From sequence record DRR378314_1571: a stretch of 40,895 nucleotides of DNA; one strand, given 5' to 3'. Below the pieces are notes generated by a model that had not been told where the DNA came from, did no database searches, and worked only from the letters and a program-made list of their open reading frames with translations. This document shows positions 421 to 16,628 of the stretch, piece after piece. The translations under genes were made by a program, and so were the position numbers. Within the stretch, counting starts at the first letter, position 1, and each line of letters opens with the position of its first letter.

Positions 421-444
421 AGGTCCTTCCCAGGGCCTTTTTTT
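421..444 (+). terminator. Rho-independent terminator after the aldehyde dehydrogenase
   Basis: AGGTCCT-TCCC-AGGGCCT hairpin (one G-U pair) followed by a T run. Confidence 0.75.
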
Positions 445-629
445 GTGCCTGCGCCGGCGTTCACCGTAATGGGTCGAAAGGATGAGTTTCGGGGCCCGGA
501 TCGGCCGGAAATCAGTGCCAAAGTACCATATTTGCCTCTTCGAGGACTGGGTAGGATTGAAGGTGAGTTACCGGACAACCGGTTAACGGATCCTCAATGC
601 CACAACAATCATCACAAGAGGTAAGCGTT

Positions 630-701
630 ATGTGGACCAAACCAGCCTATGAAGACCTGCGGATCGGCTTCGAAGTCACCATGTACTTCGCCAACCGTTG
701 A
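630..701 (+). CDS. pqqA: PQQ precursor peptide PqqA (23 aa, absent from the ORF track)
   Basis: [23 protein letters not shown] with the conserved E-x-x-x-Y motif; AAGAGG RBS; directly upstream of pqqB. Confidence 0.97.
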
Positions 702-753
702 GAAGTGATGGCCAGCCTCGTGCGCTGGCCATTTTGCTTCCGGAGTTTCCGTC

Positions 754-1683
754 ATGCAGATTCGTATCCTCGGTTCCGCCGCCGGCGGCGGGTTTCCCCA
801 GTGGAACTGCAATTGCGCCAACTGCGATGGTTTCCGCAAAGGCACCCTGAATGCCAGCGCGCGCACCCAGTCCTCCATCGCCATCAGCGAAGACGGTGAG
901 CACTGGATTCTCTGTAATGCGTCTCCCGATATTCGTGCACAACTGGCAAGCTTTGATGCCATGCAGCCGGCGCGTGCGCTCCGGGATACCGGAATCAATG
1001 CGGTGCTGCTGATAGACAGCCAGGTGGATCACACCACCGGGCTGCTGATGCTGCGCGAGGGCTTGCCGCTGGATGTCTGGTGCACGGCACAGGTCCATGA
1101 AGACCTCAGCGGCGGCTTTCCCTTGTTCAGAATGCTTGAACACTGGAATGGAGGGCCCCGGTGGCAGGAAGTGCCCTGTACCGACCAACAATCCTTCACC
1201 ATCCCCTGCGCACCGTCGCTGAGGCTGACAGCCATACCGCTGCTCAGTAATGCGCCGCCGTATTCGCCGCGCCGGAACAACCCGCACCCGGGTGACAACA
1301 TTGGCCTTTTCATAGAAGACACCCGCAGCGGTGAAACGGTTATGTACGCGCCAGGGCTCGGGCAGCCCGATGAACAGATCCTGCAATGGATGCGCAAGGC
1401 CGACACCCTGCTGGTGGACGGCACGGTGTGGCATGACGACGAAATGTTGCGCTGCGAGGTGGGCACGCGCACTGGCCAGGAAATGGGGCACCTCGCCCAG
1501 AGTGGTCCCGGCGGCATGATCGACGTGCTGGATACCATGCCAGCGCGCCGGAAAATTCTTATCCATATCAATAATACCAACCCCATTCTGAACGAGGATT
1601 CGCCGGAACGGGCCGTGCTGACAAGCCATGGCATCGAGGTGTCGTTTGACGGAATGCATCTGGTTATGGAGGTGCCCTTGTGA
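754..1683 (+). CDS. pqqB: PQQ biosynthesis protein PqqB (metallo-beta-lactamase fold)
   Basis: N-terminal [26 protein letters not shown] and [10 protein letters not shown] signature motifs. Confidence 0.97.
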
Positions 1684-2435
1684 ACGCAATCGCCACACCC
1701 GTCATGAGCCGTGGGGATTTTGAGCAGGCCCTGCGGGCGAAAGGCCAGTACTACCACATTCACCATCCGTACCATAAAGCCATGTACGGCGGCGACTGCA
1801 CCCCGGAACAGATTCGTGGCTGGGTCGCCAACCGGTACTACTATCAGATCAATATCCCCCGCAAAGACGCGGCCATCATGGCCAACTGCCCGGATGCCTC
1901 CGTTCGACGGCTATGGTTGCAGCGCGTGTTGGATCACGATGGCCACAGTGATGACGAGGGCGGTATCGAGGCCTGGCTTAGCCTGGCGGAAGCGGTCGGG
2001 TTGGCTCGCGAAGAGGTCGTCGACCAGCGCCACGTGCTCCCGGGTGTTCGTTTTGCTGTCGATGCCTACCTGAACTTTGCCCGCCGGGCGACCTGGCAGG
2101 AAGCGGCCTGCTCTTCCCTGACAGAGCTGTTTGCTCCCGAGATCCACCAGTCCCGGCTGGATAGCTGGCCACAGCATTATCCGTGGATCAAAGCGGATGG
2201 TTATGCCTATTTCCGAAAGCGGTTGTCGGAGGCGCGCCGTGATGTCGAGCATGGCCTGACCATTACCCTGGATCACTTCACCACCGCGGCGCAGCAGGCC
2301 CGTGCCCTGGAAATCCTCCAATTCAAACTGGATATTTTATGGTCTATGTTGGATGCCCTGACTATGGCTTATCAGCACCACACGCCGCCGTACCACACCG
2401 TGACCGACCAGCCGGTCTGGCACCGGGGGTTGTAG
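1680..2435 (+). CDS. pqqC: Pyrroloquinoline-quinone synthase PqqC
   Basis: [40 protein letters not shown] motifs; GTGA overlap with pqqB. Confidence 0.97.
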
Positions 2436-2710
2436 TGGCCACGCCCATGGAGTGCACGCCGCGGCTTCGCCCGGGCTTCCGCTTCCAGTGGGAGCCGGCC
2501 CAGAAGGCCCATGTGCTGTTGTATCCCGAAGGTATGGTGCGGCTGAACGACAGTGCCGGGGCGGTGCTGAAGGAAGTGGATGGTCAGCGCACCGTGGCCG
2601 ACATTGTCGCGATCCTGGAGCAGCAGTTTCCCGACGCCGGGTCGCTGGCAGACGATGTCTGCGATTTCCTCAAGGACGCTGAGCAGCAGCACTGGATACT
2701 GTTTCCATGA
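2435..2710 (+). CDS. pqqD: PqqA peptide chaperone PqqD
   Basis: [27 protein letters not shown] motif; GTG at 2435 overlaps the pqqC stop (alternative ATG at 2447). Confidence 0.95.
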
Positions 2711-3861
2711 ATCGGCACGACACCATGCCGGCGGGTGATCGCCCGGGTATTGGCCCACCCCTGTGGCTGCTGGCGGAGCTGACCTACCGCTGCCCGCTGC
2801 AATGCCCTTATTGCTCCAATCCGCTGGATTTCGCCCAGACACAGCAGGAACTGACCACCGAAGAGTGGGGCAGGGTGCTGCGCCAGGGCCGTGAGATGGG
2901 AGCCGCCCAACTGGGCTTTTCCGGGGGCGAGCCGCTGGTGCGCCAGGATCTGCCGGAGCTGATCGCAGAGGCCAGGCATCTGGGCTATTACACCAATCTG
3001 ATTACCTCCGGATTGGGGCTCACCGAGGCCAAGGTGAATGCTTTCCGCGACGCCGGGCTGGACCATATCCAGGTCAGTTTCCAGGCCTCGGACCCGGAAC
3101 TGAACAACGCCGTGGCCGGCTCCCGTAAGGCGTTCGACCAGAAAATGGCCATGGCCCGTGCGGTAAAAGAGGCGGGTTACCCCATGGTGCTCAACTTCGT
3201 GATCCATCGCCACAACATCCATCAGATGAACGACATCATCAGCCTCTGTGACCGTTTGGGAGCGGACTATGTGGAGTTGGCCACCTGCCAGTACTACGGT
3301 TGGGCCTTCGAGAACCGGGAGGGGCTGATGCCCTCCCGGGCGCAGTTGGAAAAGGCGGAGGCTGAGGTCAACCGCTATCGTCAACGTCTGGCAGACGACG
3401 GATCGGCGATGAAGCTGATCTTTGTCACACCGGACTATTACGAAGAGCGGCCAAAAGCTTGTATGAATGGGTGGGGCAGCCTATTCCTCACCGTAGCGCC
3501 AGACGGCACCGCGTTGCCCTGCCACAGTGCTCGCCTGTTGCCGATTGAGTTTCCCAATGTGCGGGATTCCTCACTACACTCAATCTGGTATGACAGCCCG
3601 GGTTTTAACCATTACCGGGGTGATAGCTGGATGCCGGAACCCTGCCGATCCTGCGACGAAAAAGGGAAGGACTTCGGCGGCTGCCGATGCCAGGCCTACC
3701 TGCTGACCGGTAATGCCGACAATGCAGACCCGGTTTGCAGCAAGTCACCCCATCACGACCGCATCCTCGCCGCCCGCCAGGCGGCGGACCACGCCACCGC
3801 CGGGCTGGAGGAGCTGACCTATCGCAACGCCAACAACTCCCGGTTGTTCTTCAGGGGCTGA
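2707..3861 (+). CDS. pqqE: PqqA peptide cyclase PqqE (radical SAM/SPASM)
   Basis: [20 protein letters not shown] (CxxxCxxC), ACMNGWG, CRSC...GGCRCQA SPASM cysteines. Confidence 0.97.
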
Positions 3862-3922
3862 TGCGCCCCTTGAGGCTGGTACAACGACAGGGCTGACGCC
3901 CGAACAGGCCTCTTCGGCGCTT

Positions 3923-5713
3923 TTGCAGCGTTCAGAGCTAGCGGCATCTGCGACCGGTGTATTCTGGCTGGAGTCCGACCCGGTCAGTGGTGGCAATGTG
4001 ATAATGACCTTAGAGGCGGGCGTCGGGATTCCTTTGCTCTCTCGCAGCTTCAGCGCTCGCAGCCAGGTTAACGGTTATGGAGGTGGTGCGCTCTGTGCCG
4101 GGCCCGAAAGCGTATTCGCCGTCGAGGCGTCCGGGCAGCAGGTTTATCACATTGATATGGCCACAGGAGCGTGCTCTCCACTCACTGACGACGATGCCTG
4201 CTATGGCGGACTCGCCTGGGACGCGGCGCATCACCGGGTGTTGGCAGTGCGTGAGGCGAACGGACGCCAGCAACTGATGGGTATTGCCCTAACGGACAGT
4301 GAATCAGCCAACTGCATACTCCACGAGTCGGAAGACTTCTACAGCGCCCCGGCGGTATCAGCCGACGGGCGGCACCTGGCCTGGGTGAGCTGGTCACTAC
4401 CGGACATGCCTTGGGTTGCCTCCGTACTCTGGACAGCATCGGTTCAGCAGGACGGCTCACTGACCCAGGCGCGACGCTGGCCCTCGCCCTCAGAAGGCAG
4501 TGTTCAGCAGCCGATATTTGATGGCGACGACGTGATTGTGTTGTCGGATCATGAGGGGTGGTGGCAACCGTGGCGGCTGACGTCCGGCGGGCAATGGCAC
4601 TTGCTGGATGACAGCCGGGAGGATCATGCCAGCGCCCTCTGGCAACTGGGTGAGCGTCATCACCAATGCCTTCCCGAGGGTGGTTGGGTACGTGTGCGGT
4701 ACCAGGCTGGAGTCGGGCAGTTGTGGTTGTGTTCAGGGAATGAAGAAACAGGCGTGCGGATCGCCAGGGAGTATGTCGACTTTCGATGCCTGGTTGTGCA
4801 GGGCCAGAGGGTGTTGTGTATTGCCCGCTCGTCCACCCGGCTCGATACGGTGTTGTCGGTCGATTGGAGCACCGGACATGCCGAGCCACTCTCCGGTGGC
4901 GAAGAGCCTTTCCCTGGAATGACATTGTCTCAGCCGGAACTCTTCAGCGTTCCTCCATCAGCCGGTGGTGTCGATGCCATCAGCGGCTTTTTCTACCCGC
5001 CAGTGCCATCCGCGTCTGATGGTAAGTCGGTACCAGTCATCCTGATTGCCCATGGCGGCCCGACCTCCACGACCTATCCGGTGCTCAACCTCCAGACCCA
5101 GTTCTGGTGCCGTCAGGGGTTTGCCGTGGCTGACGTGAACTACCGCGGCAGTTCTGGCTTCGGCCGGGCCTTTCGCATGGCGTTGGCGGGGAACTGGGGA
5201 CGTGTGGACGTGGCGGATATGGAACGTGCTGCTCGCTGGCTGGTCGCCAACAAAGCCGTTGATCCCGCCAGGCTTTTCATCCAGGGCCGCAGTTCGGGCG
5301 GTTATACCGTATTGCTGGCTATGGTCCAAACCGACGTGTTTGCGGCGGGCGCCAGCCAGTTCGGTGTCAGTGATCCCCGGCGGCTGCGAGCGATGACGCA
5401 TCGATTTGAATCCGGTTATCTGGACTGGTTGTTGGGATCTCCCGACGACTGTGCCGACAACTGGCAGCAGAGGTCGCCACTGGCTCAGGCAGATCGCCTC
5501 TGTCGACCGATGATCTTTTTCCAGGGTGCGCAGGATCGGGTGGTGGTCCCGCAGCAGACCACTGCCATCGTCAATGCGCTGCGTCGCAATGGTGGCTCTC
5601 CGGAGGTGTATGTGTACCCTGACGAGGGTCACGGATTTCGCAAGCAGAGCAACGTTGCCGATATGCTGGAACGATTGCTTCGGTTTTATCGCAGGCAGTC
5701 GACCGATCAGTAA
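3923..5713 (+). CDS. S9 prolyl-oligopeptidase-family peptidase associated with the pqq operon (PqqG/PqqH-like); true start may lie further upstream
   Basis: HGGPT, NYRGSSGFGR, nucleophile motif GRSSGG, QDRVV Asp and EGHGF His; N-terminal propeller-like region; directly after pqqE. Confidence 0.88.
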   Translation: MQRSELAASATGVFWLESDPVSGGNVIMTLEAGVGIPLLSRSFSARSQVNGYGGGALCAGPESVFAVEASGQQVYHIDMATGACSPLTDDDACYGGLAWDAAHHRVLAVREANGRQQLMGIALTDSESANCILHESEDFYSAPAVSADGRHLAWVSWSLPDMPWVASVLWTASVQQDGSLTQARRWPSPSEGSVQQPIFDGDDVIVLSDHEGWWQPWRLTSGGQWHLLDDSREDHASALWQLGERHHQCLPEGGWVRVRYQAGVGQLWLCSGNEETGVRIAREYVDFRCLVVQGQRVLCIARSSTRLDTVLSVDWSTGHAEPLSGGEEPFPGMTLSQPELFSVPPSAGGVDAISGFFYPPVPSASDGKSVPVILIAHGGPTSTTYPVLNLQTQFWCRQGFAVADVNYRGSSGFGRAFRMALAGNWGRVDVADMERAARWLVANKAVDPARLFIQGRSSGGYTVLLAMVQTDVFAAGASQFGVSDPRRLRAMTHRFESGYLDWLLGSPDDCADNWQQRSPLAQADRLCRPMIFFQGAQDRVVVPQQTTAIVNALRRNGGSPEVYVYPDEGHGFRKQSNVADMLERLLRFYRRQSTDQ

Positions 5714-5742: not shown

Positions 5743-5759
5743 TGTAAGACAGTCTTACA
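5743..5759. promoter_or_regulatory. Perfect palindrome TGTAAGAC-A-GTCTTACA upstream of the CotH operon; putative regulator site
   Basis: 8-bp perfect arms; a near-identical copy lies at 13592-13608. Confidence 0.65.
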
Positions 5760-5838
5760 TACAGTTTTCAGTCCCCCCGACAATACTCTTCCATCAGACA
5801 AGAAACCGGCCAATTCGGCCTGATGTGGGGACAAAACA

Positions 5839-7611
5839 ATGAAAATAGGGACTGATGGATTTTCGGGAAAGACAATCGTTCTGCTGGGCGCTCTGGCGGT
5901 ATTGACCGGCTGCGGTGGCGGCGGGAGCAGCAGCGAATCCAGCCCGTCGGATTTTGACGCACCGGTAGAGCCGGTCAACATCGGCGGCGATGGCGATATT
6001 TTTGACCCGGAGCGCCTGCTCGACGTGGACATCACCATGTCCGCCAGCAACTGGCGAACATTGAAAGCCGAGGCGCGAACGTTGGCTGAAACCTCCCGCG
6101 AATGCCTGCCGGAGTTCGAGTACACCGAGTTGCCCGCCACCGTCACCATCGACGGCGATACCATGGGCAACGTGAACGTGCGGAAAAAAGGCTTTATCGG
6201 TTCACTCAGCCCGGACCTGCCTTCCCTGAAACTGGATTTTAACGACCTGCAGGAAGGGCGTACTTACCAGAACGTGTCCCGTATGACCCTGAACAACAAT
6301 CGTCAGGATCCCTCCAATGTTCGTCAATGCCTGGCTTACGACCGGTTCCGGGATATCGGTATCGCAGCGCCGTTATGCAACTACGCCCAGGTGACCGTCA
6401 ATGGCGAGGATTTGGGGGTTTTTGCCCATGTTGAACCTATCCGGAAGCCCTTTTTGCGGCGCACGTTTGGCGATGACTCGGGCAATCTGTATGAGGCGCA
6501 GCAGGCCGATTTCGGCAACTATCTGATCCGCCGGTTCGAGACCAAGACCAACGAAGACGCCAACAACCGCTCTGATTTGCAGGCCGTTGCGGACGCCATG
6601 GCGCTGGATGATGAGGCGATGATGGACGTGTTGCCCCAATTGCTGGATGTGGATGAGTTCATCCGTTTCTGGGCCATGGAAACCTTGCTGGGCGCGTGGG
6701 ATTCAGCGAGCGGCAACGCCAATAACTTTTACCTCTACCATTCTCCGGACGATGGGCTGTTCCACTTCATCCCCTGGGGCGCTGATACCGCCTTTCGTGG
6801 AACCCATCCCCTGAAGCCTGGCTCCGCGCCTCTGTACCGTAACTTCCGTCTGGCGGAGCGGCTTTATGGGATGCCGGAATACCGCCAGCAATACCTGGAC
6901 GCGCTGGAAGACCTGCTGGCCAACCACTGGGACGAAGAAGCGATGCAGCTGGAGATCGAGCGGGTGATGGCGTTGACCGGGACCACGGAGGCCGACGTTG
7001 AAAGTGTTGAAAGCTTCCTGCTTGGCACCGGCATGCCCGGAGACGACGGGTATGAGCGATCGCAACGGGAGGTGTTGCTCAGCGCCATCGCCGGAAACGA
7101 GCCGGAAGTGGCGGTGACCTTGCTGGAGGATACCCAGCCGGACTGCTCCGAGCCGGCCAAGACCAACCTGACCGCCAGTGTTTCAGCGGTATCCGGTACA
7201 GACTCCGGGGTATTCAGTTTCACCTTGCCGGATGGTCGACAGGTCAGCGCGAGCCTGACGTTCGCTGCCTTTGAAGTAGACAGCCTGGTGTACTCCGTTG
7301 ACACCGAGCTGGCTCCCGCCGTGCACAGTTTATTGCTGATTGGTGTCGACGCCGCCCAGGGCTTCAAGCCTTATGTGTTGCAGGTGTTTATCGAAGACAC
7401 CGATTACAGACCCGGAACCCATAAACTCCATGGCTTTGCCACCAATGCGCTGCTCTTTGAGGTGGACGAATCCGTACCCGGCGACGTGGTGTCGCTGGCG
7501 CTGGGTGCGACCGGCACCATCACCCTCAACAGTGTGGGCAGCGGACCGAACGTCGGCGACGTGGATATGGACATCGACATGACGCTGGAATACCTCCCGG
7601 GTGCTGAATAA
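5839..7611 (+). CDS. CotH-family kinase, predicted lipoprotein, with an extra C-terminal beta-rich domain
   Basis: Lipobox LAVLTG-C followed by a Gly/Ser linker; CotH-type motifs VRKKG, LKLDF, LNNNRQDPS, VTVNGEDLGVF-x2-VE, WDS-x-SGNANNFYLY, FHFIPWGAD. Confidence 0.82.
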   Translation: MKIGTDGFSGKTIVLLGALAVLTGCGGGGSSSESSPSDFDAPVEPVNIGGDGDIFDPERLLDVDITMSASNWRTLKAEARTLAETSRECLPEFEYTELPATVTIDGDTMGNVNVRKKGFIGSLSPDLPSLKLDFNDLQEGRTYQNVSRMTLNNNRQDPSNVRQCLAYDRFRDIGIAAPLCNYAQVTVNGEDLGVFAHVEPIRKPFLRRTFGDDSGNLYEAQQADFGNYLIRRFETKTNEDANNRSDLQAVADAMALDDEAMMDVLPQLLDVDEFIRFWAMETLLGAWDSASGNANNFYLYHSPDDGLFHFIPWGADTAFRGTHPLKPGSAPLYRNFRLAERLYGMPEYRQQYLDALEDLLANHWDEEAMQLEIERVMALTGTTEADVESVESFLLGTGMPGDDGYERSQREVLLSAIAGNEPEVAVTLLEDTQPDCSEPAKTNLTASVSAVSGTDSGVFSFTLPDGRQVSASLTFAAFEVDSLVYSVDTELAPAVHSLLLIGVDAAQGFKPYVLQVFIEDTDYRPGTHKLHGFATNALLFEVDESVPGDVVSLALGATGTITLNSVGSGPNVGDVDMDIDMTLEYLPGAE

Positions 7612-8432
7612 TGGCCAGCAGTTTCAGCCTGAACGCATTTGAGCCCCACTCACTGGCGGATCAGAGCTCGTCAGCGTTGATGGATCGGGTGGATACCAAG
7701 TATCTGCTCGACGCTGACGAACTGAACCGGTGTCTGGCAGGGCTGGCGTCGGAATACACGGTGCTGGAGATGAACGGGTGTCGATCGATGGCGTACGACA
7801 CGCTCTATTTTGACACGCCCGGCCGGCAGCTCTATCTCGATCACCACAATGGCAAGCTGAACCGTATAAAGGTCCGTGCCCGCCACTACCGAGCGACCGG
7901 TGAGCGTTTTCTGGAGGTCAAGCTCAAGACCAACAAATTGCGAACCACCAAACAAAGGATGGTAGTGACCGGGGCAGAGCCAGACGCGCAAACCCTACGC
8001 TACTTCCTTCACGAGCAACTGGGCCTGCCGGCGACACGGATGCTGCCGGCTCTTTTTGTTCACTACCGTCGCATCACGCTGCTCAGCAGGGCCGGTCAGG
8101 AACGGGTTACCGTGGATACGGATATCTGCTTCGAGCATACCGGGCAGCACCAGCGTATCGGGTTGCCGGGTGTTGCGCTGATGGAGGTCAAATCGTTGCG
8201 CCATCAGCGACGTTCGCCTGTTCTGGATCTCCTGAAAAGGAGAGGACACAAACCCATCAGCTTCAGTAAATATTGCATCGGCACGGCGCTGCTGTGTCGG
8301 GGCCGCATCAAGGCCAATCGTTTCAAACCGGTTTTATCGAAGCTCGATGCGCTTCGGGACCCCAGGGAATGCCGTTACTTCAAGGAGCCATCATGGAATC
8401 CGCAGTTGATGTCCATTTCTTTATCCGCCTGA
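7611..8432 (+). CDS. Polyphosphate-polymerase (VTC / CYTH-like TTM) domain protein
   Basis: RVDTKY, TLYFDT, KVRARHY, FLEVKLK, RVTVDTD, LMEVK, FSKY motifs; basic protein; TAATG overlap with the CotH gene. Confidence 0.85.
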   Translation: MASSFSLNAFEPHSLADQSSSALMDRVDTKYLLDADELNRCLAGLASEYTVLEMNGCRSMAYDTLYFDTPGRQLYLDHHNGKLNRIKVRARHYRATGERFLEVKLKTNKLRTTKQRMVVTGAEPDAQTLRYFLHEQLGLPATRMLPALFVHYRRITLLSRAGQERVTVDTDICFEHTGQHQRIGLPGVALMEVKSLRHQRRSPVLDLLKRRGHKPISFSKYCIGTALLCRGRIKANRFKPVLSKLDALRDPRECRYFKEPSWNPQLMSISLSA

Positions 8433-8971
8433 TCATCAACCTGATCTCGGTTTTTATCCTGATCCGGTGTTACTACGCGTTCTCCCACCATCGTGAAAAC
8501 GCCGCCTCGTTCATCCTCTTCGGCGTGGGTGTGTTTCTGGTCACGGCCTTACTGAATTCGGTGACTGTATCCATGGGCTTCGCCTTCGGGTTGTTCGCGG
8601 TGTTCTCCATGTTGCGATACCGCACCGAAGCGTTGGGCATCAAGGAAATGACCTATCTGTTTCTGGTGATCGCCATGGCGCTGCTGGCGGCCGTCGGGAA
8701 CGTGGCGCACTGGGTGTTGGCGTGTCTGAACGGCTTGGTGATCGCCATCGCCTTGTTGCTGGAAACCCGGATGATGCTGCCATTGTGCGGTGAGAAGGAC
8801 ATCGAATACGAAAAAATTGACCTGATTCACACGGACCGCCGAGAGGAATTGATTGCCGACTTGCGATCGCGGACTGGCCTGGACGTGAATCGGGTGGATG
8901 TGGTCTCCGTGAGCTTTCTACGGGATACGGCGCAGCTAAGGATGCATTACCGAATGGAGCACGGATCATGA
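8393..8971 (+). CDS. DUF4956-family membrane protein
   Basis: GFAFGLFAVFSMLRYRTE and KEMTYLF signature; several hydrophobic helices plus a soluble C-terminus; AAGGAG RBS before ATG 8393; overlaps the VTC gene by 40 nt. Confidence 0.85.
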   Translation: MESAVDVHFFIRLIINLISVFILIRCYYAFSHHRENAASFILFGVGVFLVTALLNSVTVSMGFAFGLFAVFSMLRYRTEALGIKEMTYLFLVIAMALLAAVGNVAHWVLACLNGLVIAIALLLETRMMLPLCGEKDIEYEKIDLIHTDRREELIADLRSRTGLDVNRVDVVSVSFLRDTAQLRMHYRMEHGS

Positions 8972-10089
8972 TGGACGATCTTCGCTGGGCCCTATTGGTT
9001 TTGTGGCTGATGGTCAGCTTTTCCCTGCAGGTACAGGCAGACACCAAAGGTTTTGAAGCCGACATTGGAGGCTATGTAGTGGCTGGTGTGGACCATTACG
9101 GCGCCTTCTATGATGAGGAGGGCGTTGACTCGACCACCAACACGGTTCTGCGGAAACTCAGGCTCGGACTCGAGTTGGCCTATGGCGAACACTGGTCCTT
9201 CGAGCTCGATGGTGACTACCAGTACGACGGCGATGAGCAAGTACTGGAATTCGATGACGTCTGGTTGCGATACGATGGTTTTGGCTGGGGTGGTGTCCAG
9301 GTGGGGCAGATGAAAGAGCCTTTCGGTTTTGAACGTACCAGTGGCTATTCCAGCCTGATGACCAACGAACGCTCCCTGGCGACCAGCGCCTTTGCGCCGG
9401 GGCGCTCCGAAGGCGTGATGGTCAACCGGGCCGGTAAAAAGGCCACCTGGGCACTGGGCGTGTTCCGGGAAGATGCCGATGCCAAGTCGCCCAGGGCGGT
9501 AACGGGCCGCGTGACCTTCGCCCCGCTTCGCTCTGAACACCAGACGGTCCACCTGGGGTTGGCCGGCTCCTGGCGAGACTTGCGCGGCGAACGGTTTCAG
9601 ATACGCGACCATGGGGAGGTCTACAGTGCCGACAATGTGATCCGAAGCCCGCGCTTCGATGCGGATGACCTGGCGTTGCTGGGTGGTGAGTTTGCCTGGA
9701 CTCGCGGTTCGGTCACCCTCATATCGGAAGCGATGACCCAGCGAGTCAGGCAGGTCGGGGGCGATGAGTGGCAATTCAGTGGCGGCTATGCCCAGCTGGG
9801 CTATCTGCTCACGGGCGAACACCGGGGGTATAGCCGGGGCGAGTTCGACCGCATTGATCCGCTCAGCCATCTGGGTGCCGTTGAACTGGTGGCACGCTGG
9901 AGTGGGGTGGATCTCCGGCAGCGGGATGTGGGCGCCGAAGCCTCCATAGCGATGCTGGGGATCAACTATTATTGGCGTAAATCGGTTCTGCTGAGGGTGA
10001 ATTACCTGATTCCGACCATCAGCGGCAACGCGTTGATGGCAAACCCCGATGGGGATGCGGTCACCGTGCGTGCCCAGCTCAGGTTCTGA
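8968..10089 (+). CDS. OprO/OprP-family (phosphate-selective) porin
   Basis: Signal peptide ending VQA; GQMKEPFGFE...ERSL motif; GGYAQLGYLLTGEHR; LGINYYW; terminal Phe; ATGA overlap with the DUF4956 gene. Confidence 0.82.
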   Translation: MMDDLRWALLVLWLMVSFSLQVQADTKGFEADIGGYVVAGVDHYGAFYDEEGVDSTTNTVLRKLRLGLELAYGEHWSFELDGDYQYDGDEQVLEFDDVWLRYDGFGWGGVQVGQMKEPFGFERTSGYSSLMTNERSLATSAFAPGRSEGVMVNRAGKKATWALGVFREDADAKSPRAVTGRVTFAPLRSEHQTVHLGLAGSWRDLRGERFQIRDHGEVYSADNVIRSPRFDADDLALLGGEFAWTRGSVTLISEAMTQRVRQVGGDEWQFSGGYAQLGYLLTGEHRGYSRGEFDRIDPLSHLGAVELVARWSGVDLRQRDVGAEASIAMLGINYYWRKSVLLRVNYLIPTISGNALMANPDGDAVTVRAQLRF

Positions 10090-11455
10090 CGCGATCGGCC
10101 TCCAGGGGCAGCTCCAGTGTCACCCGCGTCCATTGCCCCAGCGCACTGCTAATCGACAGTGTCCCACCGTGGTGGCGCAGGATGGTCTGGCAGATGCTAA
10201 GGCCCAGCCCGAGGTTTTCCGGTGTGTCACTGGTCGAATAGAAAGGATCCGTCAGGCGACGTATCTCCTCCTCGGGAATGCCGCAGCCGTTATCGGCCAG
10301 TGTGATATCAAGGGTCCGGGCATCGCGAGTCGTCGACACATGAATGATGGCGGGCTGACGATCCAGTTGGCTCTGAAGCGCCGAGGCAGCATTGAGAAAA
10401 AGATTCACGAACACCTGAGTCAGCGCCGAAGGGTAGCAAGGTACTGTTAGGGTTTCCGGTACGTCGATCTCCAGGTCAATGCCGCGCAGTTTGTGTTTGG
10501 TGAAGCGCGTGGCGGCATTGATAAGCCCCGTGAGGTTTGCCAGTTCTTTGGCGTGCTCCGGATGAGGGACAGAGAAATCGATAAGGTCCGAGACGATGTC
10601 GGCAATGCGTTTCTGATGCGCCGCGGCATCGTCGATCGCTTCGCCCAGTTCGGGGTCTTCGTTGATATCCTTTGCGTACTGCAGCGCCTGCACGGAGCAG
10701 TTGACCGGATTCATGATTTCATGGAGCAGGCCCTTGGCCATGTGACTGAGGGCCTGATGCTTTTGTTGCTGGATCAGGTTTTCCTCAGTCACCTGAAGCG
10801 TTCGCAGAGTGCGGCTCAACATCCGGTTTCTGTCGCGCAACAGGAACTGCAGCGCCAGGATGTTTCGCACGAAGCGACGAAAAAAAACGGCTAACAACGG
10901 TGAAATGACCAGGCACATCAGAACCAGCCAGTTCAACAACACTTCCTGTAGCTTGGTTGCCACATCCGCTGCGGGTACCGCGGCCCAGGTAGCGGCGTAG
11001 AGAAACGCCAGATTGATGGCGATCATGATCAGGGTATGCCGTGGCGACAGCGTCACGATGCCGAGGAAGCTGATGAAGAAGTAGAGCCCGATCGTCGGCG
11101 TTAGATCGCCTCCGGTTTTGATAAAGGCAAGATAGCTGAACAGCGCCATGTTCAGCAAAACCAGATACATGATCAGTGGCGTGCGAAAACGCACTGCCTT
11201 GAATCGGTGGGCCACAATGAAACAGGAGAGAATCGCGGTGTAGACAAACAGTCCGCCCGGAACGTTGGCAGGGCCAAGCTGTGCGGCCAGCGTCATCATG
11301 TGCGCAAGGGTTCCGATCAGTGTGATCAGCAGCGAGACGTCCGCAAAAACCGGCAGGAACCGGAAACGGGCTTGGGCGTTGTAGAAACGCTCGAACTGTC
11401 GTTGCTTGCGCGGTGTAAGCTGCTGAACCTGTTGCAGCCCGTCGAGTATCTTCAT
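10079..11455 (-). CDS. Membrane-bound sensor histidine kinase
   Basis: Multi-TM N-terminus; H-box LLHEIMNPV, N-box QVFVNLFLNA, DNGCGI, PFYST, LGLGLSI. Confidence 0.92.
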   Translation of the reverse strand: MKILDGLQQVQQLTPRKQRQFERFYNAQARFRFLPVFADVSLLITLIGTLAHMMTLAAQLGPANVPGGLFVYTAILSCFIVAHRFKAVRFRTPLIMYLVLLNMALFSYLAFIKTGGDLTPTIGLYFFISFLGIVTLSPRHTLIMIAINLAFLYAATWAAVPAADVATKLQEVLLNWLVLMCLVISPLLAVFFRRFVRNILALQFLLRDRNRMLSRTLRTLQVTEENLIQQQKHQALSHMAKGLLHEIMNPVNCSVQALQYAKDINEDPELGEAIDDAAAHQKRIADIVSDLIDFSVPHPEHAKELANLTGLINAATRFTKHKLRGIDLEIDVPETLTVPCYPSALTQVFVNLFLNAASALQSQLDRQPAIIHVSTTRDARTLDITLADNGCGIPEEEIRRLTDPFYSTSDTPENLGLGLSICQTILRHHGGTLSISSALGQWTRVTLELPLEADRVRT

Positions 11456-12099
11456 GAGTCGAGATTGTTCCTGAAGCGTTTCATGAACAGCATCAGATCC
11501 GGTTGCCGTTCAAAGCCCATCTTGATGAATATGCGGTCCTTGTAGGAGTGCACCGTTTTATAGGAAACCCCAAGCTGATCGGCAATGGTCTTGAACGTAA
11601 CCCGATCTGCCATCAGTTTTGCGACTTCACGCTCCCGGGCAGACAGTGCGTGAAACGCCTCCAGGTCTGGAGGTGTCGCGGTAGCGGGAGTCTGGCACGA
11701 GTCCGCGTCTACATACACCTGCCCGTTGCGAATGTAGTGCAGGGATCGAATCAGTTCCTGGACGGGTTGGGTCTTGGCCACCACCGTTTTAATGCCTGAC
11801 TCCAGATAGATCGCCAGGCGCGCTGGCGAGACTGGCCGCTCCACGAGCAGTAGCACGGACAGTGCGGGGTGGTTGGAAAGGGCCACTTCCGCGATGGTCA
11901 GGCCATCGTTGTCCTGCAGGGCTTCTTCAATAATCAGCACGGAGGGCCTGGCGGTCGGAAGATGCTCCAGGGTATCGACACCGGTCGCGGATTCGCCCAC
12001 CAGATCAATGTTCTCCTCAAGGAGCAACTGATAGAGGATGGCGTCGCGGTAGAGGCGCTTGTCGATGGTGACGTACAGCCGGATATCGTCCTTTGTCAC
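11452..12099 (-). CDS. LuxR/NarL-family transcriptional regulator with an atypical receiver domain
   Basis: C-terminal HTH LSAREREVAKLMADRVTFKTIADQLGVSYKTVHSYKDRIFIKMG; receiver has VLIIEE where the acceptor Asp normally lies. Confidence 0.88.
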   Translation of the reverse strand: MTKDDIRLYVTIDKRLYRDAILYQLLLEENIDLVGESATGVDTLEHLPTARPSVLIIEEALQDNDGLTIAEVALSNHPALSVLLLVERPVSPARLAIYLESGIKTVVAKTQPVQELIRSLHYIRNGQVYVDADSCQTPATATPPDLEAFHALSAREREVAKLMADRVTFKTIADQLGVSYKTVHSYKDRIFIKMGFERQPDLMLFMKRFRNNLDS

Positions 12100-13529
12100 G
12101 GCTTCCGGCTCCCGCCCGAGGGGGCGCGCAGAGGCAATGACAGCTCAAGGGTGAAGCGTTGTTGGCCTCCCTGAAGGAGAACTTGGCCGCCCTGTTGTCG
12201 GGCCATGATATAGAGGGCAAGCAAGGCGCCCTGTTGCTTCAATAGCTGGCTGGACACACGGGCCATTGGCGAAAGGACATGACTGTAAAGGTGGAGGTTC
12301 TTGCCGGGTTCCAGCCGAAGGGTCGTGACGTCCTCATCCTGCTCGCTTATGAGGTGGTCACGGCTCATTCCGGACGCGCTCAACAGCACATCCAGCGCGG
12401 ACTGAATGGCGTCGGGCAGGGGGCCGTTGTTGGCTTCGGCGTCGGCTAACGGTATCTCCAGATAGTGGATCAGTTCGGCGCGTAGCCCACGGGCCAGGGC
12501 GGTATCCAGGACCTCAGGGCTCTGGTCACGAAAGTGGGAGGCGCCGGGTGGCAAGGTGTCGATGGCGTCCATATCCCTCAGAAAATCCTGTATCACGTCC
12601 GGTGACGCCATAGGGCCTGATGGCGATTCGGTCAGAGCCCTGAGGAGAGCGGCCTTTCGCTGTTCGCGAATGCCCTCGAAACGCTCAGCAAGTGCGACTT
12701 GTGACTGCTCCGATTTCCGGCGCGATGCGTGGTGCTGCGCAATAGCGTCTTCCAGCACCGGGAGCAGGGATGCGGCATGCCACGGCTTTTTCTGATAGCG
12801 GAAGATGCGCCCCTCGTTAACTGCGCCCAGGGCAACGTCCAGCTCCCCGTAGGCCGACGTGAGGATGCGAGTAATATGGGGATAGGACTGGCGCATCTCG
12901 TTGATCAACTGCAGTCCTTTCATGCCCGGCATGCGCTGGTCGGTCATCAGGACGGCGATCCGGTGACCCTCCTGATGCAGGGTCTCCAGAGCTTGTTGGG
13001 CGTCGGCGGCGCAGCGGATGTCGAAGCGGTCCTGCATTCGCATCAGTTGTTTGCTGAGGTACTTGGTCGCGGACTGTTCGTCGTCAACAATCAGTACCAA
13101 CGGCTTGGGATGTTCGCTCTCGACAGGGGCGGGCCTGGCGTTATCCTTCACCGACATGGTGGCTGCAAACAGGTCGGTGCGGACGAGATTCAGATCCCAG
13201 GGCTTGGCGTAGCAGCGGTCGACGACCCTGTTCTCCAGCAAGTGGATGATCTGGTCGAGGGAAATCTGGCTGCCAATGACGATTCGGAAACAGCAGCCAG
13301 CTTCGCTGACCTGCTGCAGTAGAGAAGACGCCAACAGATGCTCGGAGTCCGTGGTGATGAATACCAGGGCGTCAGGCAGGGATCGGCCCGATGCAAGGGC
13401 AGCCAGGGCTTCTTCGTCCGAGGGGTAGCTGTCGATTGAAAAGGCCCCGGCGAAATCCTGAACAAAAGCATCCCGATCGTCTTCCCGGTCGTACCGGAGA
13501 AGTACCCTATGTGGTTGATCAACCGACAT
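12096..13529 (-). CDS. Response regulator with two receiver domains (first one degenerate) and a degenerate HATPase-like C-terminus
   Basis: Second REC is canonical (VLIVDDE, LMTDQRMPG, LTSAY, KKPW); first REC keeps only KPW; C-terminal QQGGQVLL...FTLELSLP; ATG 13529 chosen with AAGGA upstream. Confidence 0.8.
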   Translation of the reverse strand: MSVDQPHRVLLRYDREDDRDAFVQDFAGAFSIDSYPSDEEALAALASGRSLPDALVFITTDSEHLLASSLLQQVSEAGCCFRIVIGSQISLDQIIHLLENRVVDRCYAKPWDLNLVRTDLFAATMSVKDNARPAPVESEHPKPLVLIVDDEQSATKYLSKQLMRMQDRFDIRCAADAQQALETLHQEGHRIAVLMTDQRMPGMKGLQLINEMRQSYPHITRILTSAYGELDVALGAVNEGRIFRYQKKPWHAASLLPVLEDAIAQHHASRRKSEQSQVALAERFEGIREQRKAALLRALTESPSGPMASPDVIQDFLRDMDAIDTLPPGASHFRDQSPEVLDTALARGLRAELIHYLEIPLADAEANNGPLPDAIQSALDVLLSASGMSRDHLISEQDEDVTTLRLEPGKNLHLYSHVLSPMARVSSQLLKQQGALLALYIMARQQGGQVLLQGGQQRFTLELSLPLRAPSGGSRKP

Positions 13530-13591
13530 GTAAGCTGGATCCTTGGCGAGAGGTTGGCCGGTGAATAATACCAATCGGGTATCGACCCGAA

Positions 13592-13608
13592 TGTAAGAAC
13601 ATCTTACG
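13592..13608. promoter_or_regulatory. Second TGTAAGA-N3-TCTTAC palindrome, upstream of the regulatory operon
   Basis: TGTAAGA-ACA-TCTTACG, matching 5743-5759. Confidence 0.6.
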
Positions 13609-13729
13609 CTGTTTGGGTGTCGAAAATCCCGGCACAGATCTCACGATGAGGAACCGGATGAGAAGCCACCCGGGTTGGGTTAAACTCCGGGTAAGACATA
13701 ATAACAACGACAAAACGGCGAGACCTCAG

Positions 13730-14893
13730 ATGAACTACGACATTTCCGCCCTGCGCAAGTTTGTGTCCCCTGAAATCGTCTTTGGCGCCGGCTCGCGCAA
13801 GGCAGTCGCCAATTTCGCCAGTAATTTTGGTGCCCGACACGTGTTCCTGGTGTCCGACCCTGGCGTGGAGAAAGCCGGCTGGGTTGCGGAAATCATGGAT
13901 ATCCTGGTGACAGCGGGTCTTCGTGTCACGGTTTTTACCGGTGTCTCCGCCAATCCGAAAGTGGACGAGGTCATGGCCGGTGCCGAGTTGTACAAATCCA
14001 GCCAGTGTGACGTGATTGTCGCCATCGGTGGCGGCAGCCCCATGGACTGCGCCAAGGGTATTGGCATCGTCAGCGCCCATGGCCGGAACATCCTTGAGTT
14101 TGAGGGTGTGGACACCATTACCTCGCCGTCGCCCCCGATGATCCTGATTCCCACCACGGCAGGGACATCCGCCGATGTCTCCCAGTTTGCGATCATTTCC
14201 GACCCCAACCGGCGTTTCAAGTTCTCCATTATCAGCAAGGCGGTGGTGCCGGATGTGTCGTTGATCGATCCGGAAGTGACGGAATCCATGGGCGCCTACC
14301 TGACCGCCTGTACCGGGGTGGATGCCATGGTGCATGCTATTGAAGCGTACGTCTCCACCGGCAGTGGGCCGTTGACGGACACCAATGCCCTGGAAGCCAT
14401 TCGGCTGATCAATCGTCACCTGGAGCCGCTGGTTCAGAATACCGCCAATGTGCATTTGCGGGAGCAGATCATGCTGGCCTCCATGCAGGCCGGCCTGGCG
14501 TTTTCCAATGCCATCCTGGGGGCGGTGCATGCCATGTCCCATAGCCTGGGTGGCTACCTTGATTTGCCCCACGGCCTTTGTAACGCTCTCCTGCTGGAGC
14601 ATGTGGTGGCCTACAACTACGCCTCGGCAGAGGATCGATTCCGGCGCGTGGCTGAGGCCATGGACATCGACACCCGCGGTATGTCGAAACCGGTGATCAA
14701 ACAGCGCTTGATGGAGAGAATCATCACCTTGAAACAGGCAGTGGGGTTGGACGCAAAACTGGCCAAGCTGGGCGTGACCACCTCCGACATACCCTACCTG
14801 TCGGGGTTCGCGCTGCAGGACCCCTGCATCCTGACCAATCCCCGAAAGTCCTCCCGCCGTGATGTCGAAGTGGTTTATGAAGAAGCCCTCTGA
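13730..14893 (+). CDS. ercA: Iron-containing alcohol dehydrogenase-like regulatory protein (ErcA-like)
   Basis: LRKFVSPEIVFGAG start, GGGSPMD, PTTAGT, HAIEAY, HAMSH...HG metal ligands; paired with a PAS hybrid kinase near pqq genes. Confidence 0.85.
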   Translation: MNYDISALRKFVSPEIVFGAGSRKAVANFASNFGARHVFLVSDPGVEKAGWVAEIMDILVTAGLRVTVFTGVSANPKVDEVMAGAELYKSSQCDVIVAIGGGSPMDCAKGIGIVSAHGRNILEFEGVDTITSPSPPMILIPTTAGTSADVSQFAIISDPNRRFKFSIISKAVVPDVSLIDPEVTESMGAYLTACTGVDAMVHAIEAYVSTGSGPLTDTNALEAIRLINRHLEPLVQNTANVHLREQIMLASMQAGLAFSNAILGAVHAMSHSLGGYLDLPHGLCNALLLEHVVAYNYASAEDRFRRVAEAMDIDTRGMSKPVIKQRLMERIITLKQAVGLDAKLAKLGVTTSDIPYLSGFALQDPCILTNPRKSSRRDVEVVYEEAL

Positions 14894-16628
14894 CCCCAAC
14901 GATGCCGACTACGATATCAGTGATCTGCTTGGCCTTGGCAGCCAGTCCGTAAGAAAGAACTATTACCCGGCACTGCAGGCGCGGATCGATGAACTCGAGA
15001 AGGAGCGCAACCGATACAAGTGGTTGTTTGAAAACGCCCTTCACGGCATTTTTCAGGCCAACCTGAGAGGCGGCTTTGTGGCCGCCAATCCCGCCATGGC
15101 CAAGATCTGCGGGTATGAGAGCGCGGAGGCCCTGATTACGGGGGTTATCCGTCTGCGCGAGCAGCTGTTCTGCAGCTCCGGAGAGTTTGATGCCATTCGC
15201 CAGGAATTACTCGATAACGGCAGCCTCAGCGCAAGGGAGACGAGGCTCAGACGATCGGATAACACGCCGGTGCAGGTGGCTATTACGCTCTTGCGGCGGC
15301 CTGATTTGGGGCCAGAGGTGGTGGAAGCGTTTGTGGCGGACATTACCGAGCGCTACCAGGCACGGGAAAAACTGCGGCAGCTCAATGCGGACCTGGAGCG
15401 CCGCGTGGAAGAACGCACCGACGAACTGCAGAATGCCAACGTGGTTCTGCGCTACCAGATTGAGCAGCGGAAAAAGGTGGAGCGGGAACTGGTCGTTGCC
15501 GTGGACGCGGCGCGGGAAGCTAACGAGAGTAAAGACAAGTACCTGGCGGCGGCCAGCCACGACCTGTTGCAACCGCTGAACGCAGCCAGATTGCTGGTTT
15601 CTGCCCTGATCGACAGCCCATTGCCAACGGACGAGAGCCACCTTGTTCAGCGTGTGCAGAGATCCCTGGAGAGTGCTGAAGACCTGCTGGCGGATTTGCT
15701 CGATATCTCCAAACTCGACCAGAAAGCGATACAGCCGGACAGCGTCGATACCGACATTGGCGAACTGATGCGGGGGCTGGCGCAGGAATTCGAACCGGTG
15801 GCAGAGAACGCAGAGCTGCATTTTCGGGTGCGTTTGGGGGCAGGTTACGTGCGCTCTGACCCGCGAATGCTGACCCGGATACTCCGCAACCTGCTCAGCA
15901 ACGCGTTTCGCTATACCCGTGAGGGTGGTGTGCTGTTCGCGGCCCGCAAGCGGGGCCCAAACCTAGAGGTGGGGGTGTGGGACACCGGTGTGGGCATCGA
16001 GCAGGAAAAGCTCGAGGACATCTTCCGGGAGTTTCACCAGATCCTGCCCAAGGGTGGCGGTCGCCAGGGGGTGGGCCTGGGGCTGGCAATTGTTGAACGC
16101 ATGGCAAGGATACTGGCGTGTGATATCCGCGTGGATTCACATCACGGCAAAGGCTCCTGTTTCAGTATTCTCATTCCCCTGGCCCAGTACACCGGCGTGC
16201 CTGCCAGCAGCCGGAAAGCGGAACCTTCACCCGTTGCACCCACGTCTTTCGATGGGCTTCGTATTCTGGTGATCGACAATGAGGAGCCGGTACAGGAAAG
16301 CATGCGGGCCCTGCTGGAGCGTTGGGGATGCGTGGTCGCCACGGCAAGCAGTGCGGTTGAGGCCGTGGCGTATTGCGGCGGTACCGATATCATCCTTGCG
16401 GATTTCCACCTGGATGAGAACCTGACGGGCTGTCAGGCCGTGTATACCGTACGTCGACACTTCGGGCATGATATCCCGGCGGCGATCATTACCGCGGACC
16501 GCAGCGATGAAACGCGAAGGCTTATCAATGCGCAGTCCCTGCCAATTCTCAACAAGCCCGTGAAACCCAACCGCCTTCGGGCACTTGTCTCCAGTCTTGC
16601 CGCTTCCCTGAACTCAGGATCGCAATGA
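14877..16628 (+). CDS. ercS: Cytoplasmic PAS-domain hybrid sensor kinase (ErcS-like)
   Basis: LLGLGSQSVRKNYYP N-terminus, PAS (ending DITER), SHDLLQPL H-box, NLLSNA, DTGVGI, GVGLGL, C-terminal REC (IDNE, ADFHL, NKP); start uncertain (14859, 14862 or 14877). Confidence 0.85.
   Translation: MKKPSDPNDADYDISDLLGLGSQSVRKNYYPALQARIDELEKERNRYKWLFENALHGIFQANLRGGFVAANPAMAKICGYESAEALITGVIRLREQLFCSSGEFDAIRQELLDNGSLSARETRLRRSDNTPVQVAITLLRRPDLGPEVVEAFVADITERYQAREKLRQLNADLERRVEERTDELQNANVVLRYQIEQRKKVERELVVAVDAAREANESKDKYLAAASHDLLQPLNAARLLVSALIDSPLPTDESHLVQRVQRSLESAEDLLADLLDISKLDQKAIQPDSVDTDIGELMRGLAQEFEPVAENAELHFRVRLGAGYVRSDPRMLTRILRNLLSNAFRYTREGGVLFAARKRGPNLEVGVWDTGVGIEQEKLEDIFREFHQILPKGGGRQGVGLGLAIVERMARILACDIRVDSHHGKGSCFSILIPLAQYTGVPASSRKAEPSPVAPTSFDGLRILVIDNEEPVQESMRALLERWGCVVATASSAVEAVAYCGGTDIILADFHLDENLTGCQAVYTVRRHFGHDIPAAIITADRSDETRRLINAQSLPILNKPVKPNRLRALVSSLAASLNSGSQ

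Follow-up and report, generated by a model that had tools for sequence, protein, structure and literature searches.

A CotH–VTC–DUF4956–porin operon as a candidate bacterial polyphosphate synthase-translocase

Introduction

Here, we analyze a four-gene operon in a 40,895-nucleotide stretch of DNA from a marine bacterium (record DRR378314_1571; "the window" denotes its full length) that encodes a CotH-family lipoprotein, a Vtc4-type triphosphate-tunnel (VTC) protein, a DUF4956 inner-membrane protein, and an OprO/OprP-family porin. The VTC and DUF4956 proteins may together constitute a bacterial VTC-like polyphosphate (polyP) synthase-translocase serving envelope enzymes, a reading to which we assign a probability of roughly 0.45. 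Its extension to polyP-fueled envelope phosphorylation is doubtful, as is the broader proposal of a widespread prokaryotic system in which polyP is made at the inner membrane, threaded outward, and used as phosphoryl donor by periplasmic and surface kinases. Bacterial polyP synthesis is credited to cytoplasmic PPK1 and PPK2. A 2026 article describes microbial polyP metabolism as confined to intracellular cycling (PMC13318637). A VTC-type synthase-translocase, if real, would add a further bacterial polyP route together with a dedicated exporter.

A sequence-only reading of this DNA had described four overlapping genes for CotH, VTC, DUF4956, and the porin, which the open reading frame (ORF) coordinates confirm: cotH and the VTC gene overlap by 1 nt (TAATG), the VTC and DUF4956 genes by 40 nt, and the DUF4956 and porin genes by 4 nt (ATGA). 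The hidden Markov model check that it suggested was applied to 35 ORFs of the window using Pfam, and all four families passed their cut-offs (CotH, E 2e-40; VTC, 5e-29; DUF4956, 2.5e-47; Porin_O_P, 9e-44); NCBIfam returned no family match among the four proteins. The ORF finder's DUF4956 start (8273, TTG) lies inside the VTC gene and was rejected in favor of the ATG at 8393. GC and GC3 of the four genes are similar to those of neighboring genes. None of the three outcomes that the sequence-only reading had named as fatal to its proposal (no VTC–DUF4956 interaction, a plain triphosphatase, or no co-occurrence) was what we found.

The VTC Protein

The VTC protein is basic (isoelectric point 9.86), contains no hydrophobic segment, and devotes residues 24–243 to its tunnel domain, in agreement with the signal-less basic protein of triphosphate-tunnel fold described earlier. 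Its structure model (predicted local distance difference test score, pLDDT, 89.9) matched Vtc4 best (3g3r; Foldseek E 4e-14; VIA Z 18.2, root-mean-square deviation 2.8, 216 residues aligned). YgiF, which shares the eight-stranded tunnel fold, matched at Foldseek E 4e-10 (VIA Z 13.8, deviation 3.1, 186 aligned), and the best CYTH proteins reached Z 13.9 and 13.8. A broad profile of 33 sequences, 20–46% identical to the query, recovered Vtc4 (E 1.6e-24), Vtc2 (1e-16), and Vtc3 (9e-12) from the Protein Data Bank (PDB). CYTH enzymes were absent from the matches at E up to 10, and the alignment of the profile to Vtc4 covers the entire tunnel domain. Only this profile found Vtc4, which was missed by PDB searches with the single sequence or a narrow profile.

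CYTH triphosphatases carry an ExExK motif in their first strand. The VTC protein lacks this motif, known from YgiF and TTM3, and its first strand instead reads R26-V-D28-T-K30 (R-x-D-x-K), comparable to R-x-T-x-K in Vtc4, with R26 invariant in both VTC alignments (62/62 and 33/33). Cryo-EM of Vtc4 identifies nine residues that bind triphosphate and Mn2+, namely K200, R264, R266, K281, Y359, R361, E426, S457, and K458 (10.1101/2023.01.27.525886). Their counterparts are K30, R89, R91, K104, Y152, R154, E192, S219, and K220, respectively, seven of which are invariant in both alignments (62/62 and 33/33). S219 is invariant in the 62-sequence set and present in at least 90% of the 33-sequence set, and position 152 is Tyr or Phe in 61/62. 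K220 corresponds to Vtc4 K458, the residue that distinguishes active Vtc4 from Vtc2 and Vtc3. Given the Vtc4-like fold, the nine counterparts, and the strand-1 motif, our best guess is that the VTC protein is a polyP polymerase, which we consider probable. Its mapping onto the Vtc4 polymerase site, and not onto the CYTH triphosphatases, also argues that it is not merely a soluble triphosphatase. D28 is a caveat, as it places an acidic residue at the Vtc4 Thr198 position, and hydrolysis is therefore still conceivable.

PPK1 accompanies VTC in 25/27 VTC-positive Bacteroidota and in 4/5 Pseudomonadota tested, with genomes G001 and G002 among the carriers. The VTC protein is thus no stand-in for cytoplasmic polyP storage, and its product is probably bound elsewhere.

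Compared with its counterparts in Marinobacter relatives, the window's VTC gene reaches about 23 codons deeper into the DUF4956 gene (8360-8432; 273 versus 250–252 aa), and this extra C-terminal tail is modeled with low confidence. A supposed VTC–DUF4956 fusion in L027 was rejected, as the two lie in separate frames. Among six fusion records, four are missing a portion of a domain, apparently as artefacts of frameshift or deletion; the other two appear intact, each a single sequence, and were not used as support. A search for longer VTC forms found none, which is weak evidence, and no phage match for VTC was found.

Linkage of VTC to DUF4956

Locus counts refer to the best 80 of 571 confirmed DUF4956 loci. 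This set is biased towards kin, the closest being Marinobacter (DUF4956 identity 76–80% in L001-L011), and whole genomes were therefore sampled too: 201 Pseudomonadota and 151 Bacteroidota, each sample including a center genome picked for carrying the genes. VTC is encoded in 75/80 loci, and four of the five misses fall at contig ends, which puts the linkage beyond chance. CotH is found in 38/80 loci by profile, or 39 when a Pfam match in L076 is counted, and the order CotH-VTC-DUF4956-porin occurs in 27/80.

The whole-genome samples gave a sharper picture. DUF4956, VTC, and CotH were carried by 8, 7, and 20 of the Pseudomonadota and by 48, 27, and 57 of the Bacteroidota, respectively. Every VTC-positive genome also carried DUF4956 (7/7 and 27/27; hypergeometric P of 8e-11 and 1e-16, with center genomes excluded and relatedness ignored), and VTC lay within 5 kb of a same-strand DUF4956 gene for 10/10 matches in Pseudomonadota and 30/31 in Bacteroidota. 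CotH was present in 27/27 VTC-positive Bacteroidota and 5/7 VTC-positive Pseudomonadota, and also in many VTC-less genomes. Among 14 control genomes, the same three (B. thetaiotaomicron, C. glutamicum, and M. acetivorans) matched all three families, and B. subtilis matched CotH as well. The gene system is present in loci from Pseudomonadota, Bacteroidota, Bacillota, and Deinococcus. From these counts, together with the partial forms considered below, it follows that VTC depends on DUF4956, that DUF4956 is independent of VTC, and that CotH and the porin are frequent, exchangeable partners. The co-occurrence of the four genes suggested by the sequence-only reading thus holds across genomes.

In five Bacteroidota operons (L041, L047, L053, L055, L056), an ORF of 130–142 aa with no clear Pfam family adjoins VTC or DUF4956. 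An 880-aa galactokinase-like gene that is divergent from VTC-DUF4956 in distant genomes (L038, L052, L074) was dropped as a candidate; its product has no signal peptide.

DUF4956 and Its Predicted Complex with VTC

The DUF4956 model comprises five N-terminal helices and a β-α-β-β C-terminal domain that is half-ACT-like. The positive-inside pattern suggests that the C-domain and the R75-Y-R77-T loop at the end of helix 3 are cytoplasmic. R75 and R77 are invariant in 142/142 close sequences; in a broader set of 42, R77 remains invariant and R75 is kept in at least 90%, with a Pit-linked subfamily deviating at R75.

Prediction of a complex of four DUF4956 chains and one VTC chain, a stoichiometry that is a guess, returned a score of 0.60 versus 0.01 for the best control, which the tool grades as weak support. 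Contact agreement between runs was at least 92%, and partner pLDDT was at least 77. The calibration of the tool counsels caution, as 5/78 true complexes and all 4 of the mismatches that passed scored at or under 0.60. The job is also unlike the calibration set, and neither a pore nor an interface is part of the output. Of the synthase-translocase envisaged by the sequence-only reading, a weakly supported VTC–DUF4956 complex therefore stands, while the prediction returned nothing on the pore.

A different role for DUF4956 is suggested by its distant relatives. Among 42 DUF4956 relatives, 21 match MgtC (PF02308) at E up to 1, weakly (best 6e-6); the window protein itself has no MgtC match. DUF4956 could accordingly be an MgtC-like anchor or regulator, and no channel, of a VTC protein whose product is polyP in the cytoplasm or a short phosphate signal. 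CotH would then be a structural lipoprotein or a pseudokinase, and co-regulation alone would join the genes. We judge this improbable. It draws on the MgtC relationship, also noted in PMC12345266, on the ACT-like C-domain, and on fold comparison, where the best VIA match of the DUF4956 model has Z 7.7, among generic helical bundles, with no solved channel above it. Sequence searches of the PDB gave no match to DUF4956, Foldseek none at E up to 0.001, and the Atlas none outside its own family; Vtc1 was missing from the fold-search lists, a miss with which kinship to Vtc1 remains compatible. An anchor would, however, leave unexplained three unrelated outer-membrane channels in one slot, as well as the HlyD/TolC operons, for which the regions read show no further pump gene next to DUF4956.

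Fusion records join DUF4956 to DUF2490 (P0083, P0157, P0161, P0164) or to CotH (P0069, P0154, P0163) with an internal signal-like segment kept, and one such cluster has 36 members. These records may reflect frameshift artefacts, or else polyproteins that signal peptidase cleaves.

Outer-Membrane Partners and the Direction of Transport

The porin matches OprP (2o4v, E 4e-17) and OprO (4rjw, E 3e-15). Its R62, K63, R123, and R135 align with OprP R59, R60, K121, and R133, so that four of five basic positions are kept, with R34 lost; we take these OprP residues to be phosphate-binding. In the 80 loci, the outer-membrane slot holds a porin O/P in 30 and a DUF2490 barrel in 23, never both, and the monoderm loci read have no annotated barrel. 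Genes for HlyD-type adaptors adjoin VTC-DUF4956 in 6/16 fetched VTC regions. In VTC-less Bacteroidota, an HlyD gene sits beside DUF4956 in 10/14 fetched regions (of 21) and a TolC-like gene in 9/14, although the Pfam TolC match is weak (E 0.002) in the single TolC-like gene that matched. A conduit can therefore exist without VTC, which weighs against the synthase-translocase reading.

HlyD/TolC assemblies are exporters. The sequence-only reading had left export and uptake as alternatives; we favor export, since the HlyD/TolC variants export, the outer-membrane partner is interchangeable (porin, DUF2490 barrel, or HlyD/TolC), and a search allowing up to 3 mismatches to the consensus found no Pho-box-like repeat upstream of the operon, a miss compatible with Pho control. 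Uptake would have external polyP or pyrophosphate enter through the OprO-like porin and cross DUF4956, to be hydrolyzed or used by VTC to phosphorylate ADP. In its favor, the porin is homologous to OprO/P, OprO contributes to the uptake of polyP during phosphate starvation, and D28 is kept. Certain loci also contain further genes, for a Pit transporter in L092 and L094, a phytase-like exported protein in L094, L123, and L126, and a metallophosphoesterase in L106. However, the VTC protein has the Vtc4 R-x-x-x-K first strand rather than ExExK, two good Pho-box-like repeats lie elsewhere in the window while the operon has none, and exported phosphatases would make import of the intact polymer unnecessary and fit recycling of exported polyP equally well. 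With the exporters counted against it as well, uptake appears more improbable than the anchor role.

In a CotH-less form of the locus (L092, L094, L123, L126), the genes after DUF4956-VTC encode a Pit phosphate transporter, a phytase-like exported protein, or both, which suggests that polyP is exported and then recycled. In yeast, VTC similarly works alongside phosphatases of the lumen and an exporter of Pi. By analogy with the acidocalcisome, polyP could be exported as we propose, only for periplasmic storage or as a metal sink, with recycling, and CotH would be an unrelated passenger. These CotH-less pairings are its main attraction, yet CotH is the first operon gene in the window and in 26 further loci, and a periplasmic store would leak through the porin; we regard such a store as highly improbable.

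Nine loci (L102-L105, L110, L111, L113-L115) share a conserved run of DUF4956, HlyD, TolC-like, and short-chain dehydrogenase genes, in genomes with several unlinked CotH genes. The 239-aa gene after DUF4956-HlyD-TolC was considered as a divergent VTC and rejected, as it encodes the short-chain dehydrogenase. In two further loci, a signal-peptide-bearing ATP-grasp protein of the PEP-synthase type is convergent on a short VTC-less DUF4956 gene (L108:5775-7667 and L109:5620-7494, both on the minus strand) and may replace CotH there. Because of the VTC-less forms of DUF4956 and these exported ATP-grasp proteins beside it in two genomes, the idea of a conduit is firmer than the identity of its cargo.

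The CotH Lipoprotein

CotH carries a lipobox (LTG-C25), a Gly/Ser tether, a kinase core at about residues 110–400, and a β-rich C-terminal domain at about 430–590, for which the Atlas gave no usable match (best 0.77). It matches B. cereus CotH (5jd9) at E 1e-20 with the single sequence and 3e-42 with a profile. Residue counts refer to 120 listed of 418 homologues found, mostly from one clade, and R115, K117, K131, N153, D157, Y218, D288, N296, W313, and D316 are invariant in all 120. D288 (equivalent to catalytic Asp228) and N296 are kept in both sets of sequences compared (26/26 and 120/120).

A second essential aspartate is replaced. Mutation of D251 in B. subtilis CotH abolishes kinase activity (10.1101/469122), and a 23-residue spacing would place G314 at this position; Gly occupies it in 18/26 and 120/120 sequences, and the PW-D-Y-D motif of B. 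cereus CotH reads PW-G-x-D in this clade. G314 is always paired with E219 (138/138), whereas Asp is always paired with Lys (8/8). The pairing is confined to one clade and hence represents one event. In characterized CotH, adenine is stacked by Tyr142 and Trp245 (PMC12189002). W313 is the kept Trp245 equivalent, and position 219, allowing a one-residue offset, would be the Tyr142 equivalent, which is Glu or Lys in all 146 aligned sequences. Of the lipoprotein kinase label in the sequence-only reading, the lipobox and the CotH fold hold, while G314 calls for a caveat on activity. It also lends weight to the improbable view of CotH as a pseudokinase beside an anchor-like DUF4956. Ten other site positions are nonetheless invariant, and G314 with E219 looks like a relocated carboxylate; an enzyme with such a rearranged site is more likely, and a pseudokinase less likely. 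A CotH clade that lacks the essential second aspartate is new here.

Proposed Mechanism and Its Difficulties

In the model that we propose, VTC would transfer the γ-phosphate of ATP onto a polyP chain growing in its tunnel, where the residues for this activity are in place. VTC would then dock on a DUF4956 oligomer, and arginines at the presumably cytoplasmic end of helix 3 would pull the chain through the inner membrane; here the docking is weakly predicted and the pore is conjectural. The polymer would serve as a periplasmic pool of high-energy phosphate, which the anion porin may link to the surface. In the last and least supported step, the CotH lipoprotein could draw on this pool to phosphorylate an envelope protein or glycan, using polyP directly or through a regenerated nucleotide.

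Several observations weigh against this model, besides D28, the calibration of the complex prediction, and G314. Of 48 DUF4956-positive Bacteroidota, 21 have no VTC match, and a broader VTC profile found none in 5/5 of the VTC-less DUF4956 genomes retested. Conversely, VTC-DUF4956 occurs in genomes G137 and G165, where CotH has no match, and in Aminobacter and Shinella, where no neighboring gene is annotated as CotH. Thirty of the 80 loci have VTC without a porin, and 19 of those also have neither DUF2490 nor CotH. Published knockouts of Streptococcus intermedius homologues add to these points. CotH and DUF4956-like (MgtC plus ACT) mutants lost more than 50% of aggregation in sputum medium, whereas the polyP-polymerase-domain mutant still aggregated, with no such defect reported in the available text; Pel levels rose in the DUF4956-like mutant and fell in the CotH mutant (PMC12345266). 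A linear pathway predicts like phenotypes, and these differ. The part of the sequence-only reading that made polyP the phosphoryl donor for CotH fares worst, as DUF4956 accompanies abundant CotH in genomes that lack VTC too, some VTC-DUF4956 pairs have no CotH with them, and G314 alters the kinase site.

An alternative that we consider unlikely, though less so than the anchor role, is that DUF4956 passes ATP, or exchanges ATP for ADP, to supply exported kinases, with VTC an optional cytoplasmic gate or a handler of polyP or PPPi and not the origin of the cargo. This would fit the knockout pattern (PMC12345266), and characterized CotH uses ATP (10.1101/469122), with the Trp245 equivalent W313 kept. 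CotH also tracks DUF4956 where VTC is absent, being found in 45/48 DUF4956-positive but 12/103 DUF4956-negative Bacteroidota, genomes that are related and not independent. A signal-peptide ATP-grasp (PPDK_N) protein occurs in 5/151 genomes, all DUF4956-positive (P ~0.009 for the four non-query genomes), and in two of the five it adjoins DUF4956, with neither VTC nor CotH found. Against ATP as cargo stand the invariant polymerase site of VTC and the fact that VTC never occurs without DUF4956 in 352 genomes. An HlyD/TolC or porin duct would, by our reasoning, waste ATP, and the putative Tyr142 equivalent for adenine stacking is Glu or Lys throughout. Moreover, the retested VTC-less genomes carry PPK1, an alternative source of polyP.

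Both the polyP model and the ATP alternative would, if true, represent new envelope biology. Many non-sporulating bacteria export CotH kinases that have no known donor, and this operon offers a direct test. If correct, the polyP model would answer how exported kinases are fueled, provide a prokaryotic ancestor for eukaryotic VTC, and make the E219/G314 clade a kinase whose site was rebuilt for a polymer. The compact version described here suits experiments, as it has four genes, occurs in a genus that can be cultured, and comes with a regulator and palindrome that are predicted to switch it on.

Relation to Known Systems

The eukaryotic VTC complex (S. cerevisiae Vtc4/Vtc3/Vtc1; PDB 3g3q, 3g3r, 7ytj, 8i6v) provides the closest parallel, as both combine a Vtc4-type tunnel domain, its active site complete, with a small membrane protein that bears conserved basic residues, and coupling of synthesis to translocation is proposed. 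By architecture, however, the operon is not a member of this group. Its catalytic domain forms a soluble protein of its own that lacks SPX and transmembrane domains, its membrane subunit is a weakly MgtC-related DUF4956 with five modeled helices as against three in Vtc1-type subunits, and an outer-membrane channel and exported kinase are added. The basic-residue rings lining the yeast channel mouth and the DUF4956 arginines are an analogy, not homology. The operon's CotH resembles the Bacillus spore-coat kinase (5jd9/5jda) in its kinase core, D288, N296, and W313. It differs in being a lipoprotein of a non-sporulating bacterium that acts outside the cytoplasm, in its extra C-domain, and in having G314 for D251 and, by our mapping, E219 for Tyr142. 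Homology to Pseudomonas OprO/OprP is full-length with four basic residues aligned, but R34 and a detectable Pho-box-like site are lacking, and the porin sits in a synthesis-type operon. DUF4956 shares membrane and ACT-like domains with MgtC/SapB, and half of the family weak profile similarity; an R-[YF]-R-T motif that never varies and the fixed linkage with VTC set it apart.

Earlier work has recorded the three families CotH, polyP polymerase, and DUF4956 together, both alongside Gram-positive pel operons (10.1101/768473) and within C. perfringens NELoc-2 (PMC2879425). The S. intermedius genes SIR_1594, SIR_1593, and SIR_1592 were each deleted, and the authors suggest a role in phosphate metabolism or Pel regulation (PMC12345266); we identify SIR_1592 as DUF4956 by the gene set of 10.1101/768473, not by alignment. 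The remark in the sequence-only reading that it knew of no functional description thus needs some qualification. The accessible portions of these three reports offer no mechanism for the trio. The same three families are adjacent in our operon, which is, unlike the pel accessory set, Gram-negative, accompanied by a porin gene and a dedicated two-component system, and not contiguous with pelDEAFG/DUF4832. No pel or glycosyltransferase gene is present among the 35 scanned ORFs; the operon is flanked by pqq genes with an S9 peptidase gene and by two-component genes. The trio is therefore found outside Pel in the window and in many other loci, contradicting PMC12345266, which reports that it was not found outside the Pel locus.

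In the portions available, a review (PMC10657179) treats VTC as eukaryotic and two 2026 papers list VTC4 as eukaryotic, and the DUF4956 gene appears only in expression tables in PMC13454231 and PMC10434189. Among the papers searched, all outside subscription journals, none presents polyP synthesis or export by a bacterial VTC as an experimentally tested activity. The gene set is common and already in print, and the mechanism was not found in the literature searched.

Regulation and Genomic Context

Two palindromes and the adjacent two-component genes, which escaped the sequence-only reading, are tied to the operon (Table 1). The palindrome pattern, at up to one mismatch, matches twice in the window and never in 100 shuffles. 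It precedes cotH at 14/14 loci with the regulator genes and in 0/15 other scored cotH upstream regions, where no same-spacing site scored above 9/12. A variant of the second site (TGTAGGA-N3-TCCTACA-type, at most 2 mismatches) occupies the same place in 14/14 loci, and the histidine kinase, response regulator, and receiver protein do so in 14/80 (L001-L013, L025). These 14 loci belong to relatives (Marinobacter, Allohahella, Hahella, Oleiphilaceae) and therefore represent one inherited cassette. By eye, an (A/G)ATACT hexamer stands at similar spacing upstream in the 14 relatives; a sigma-70 scan did not call AATACT in the window, and promoter and terminator scans performed at chance level. Genome-wide, five genomes had 0–2 palindrome sites each, versus 0–1 for a control pattern. 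The palindrome is similar to the GacA box, differing in a spacer that is shorter by one base. We infer that in Marinobacter-like bacteria the adjacent two-component system acts through the palindrome to switch the operon, for which control by PhoB is not evident. The conserved unit is probably 5743-13608, adding the convergent two-component operon and both palindromes to the four genes.

Table 1. Features of the operon and its putative regulatory region (window coordinates)
Feature	Position	Strand	Remarks
Palindrome TGTAAG-N5-CTTACA, putative LuxR-type regulator site	5743-5759		perfect; 80 nt before cotH
Putative -10 hexamer AATACT	5782-5787	+	22 nt after palindrome; suggestive of class II activator spacing
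CotH-family kinase-fold lipoprotein	5839-7611	+	590 aa; PF08757
VTC (Vtc4-type triphosphate-tunnel) protein, cytoplasmic, predicted polyP polymerase	7611-8432	+	273 aa; PF09359
DUF4956 inner-membrane protein, predicted oligomeric conduit	8393-8971	+	192 aa from ATG; PF16316
OprO/OprP-family outer-membrane porin with signal peptide	8968-10089	+	373 aa; PF07396
Membrane histidine kinase	10079-11455	-	HisKA + HATPase_c; convergent, 11-nt overlap with porin gene
NarL/LuxR-type response regulator	11452-12099	-	GerE + REC; UhpA-/UvrY/GacA-like below cut-off
Receiver-domain protein, first gene of regulatory operon	12096-13574	-	Response_reg
Second palindrome copy, putatively autoregulatory	13592-13608		1 mismatch; before regulatory operon

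The true start of the receiver-domain gene is probably an ATG downstream of the 13574 call. Contigs from RNA runs of related strains possibly represent DNA and were unusable for expression or operon structure. The two Pho-box-like direct repeats elsewhere in the window lie at 30409-30425 (0 mismatches to the pattern) and 19912-19928 (1 mismatch), the latter between a metallophosphoesterase gene and a chromate-transporter gene. Two long ORFs, 26681-28705 (+, 674 aa) and 13604-14899 (-, 431 aa), have no Pfam match at E 0.01, and the second may be a shadow of a plus-strand gene. Directly upstream of the operon, pqqB-C-D-E and an S9 peptidase gene occupy 46-5713, a placement that is not conserved. 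An ordinary MgtC gene stands apart from the operon at 31314-31823.

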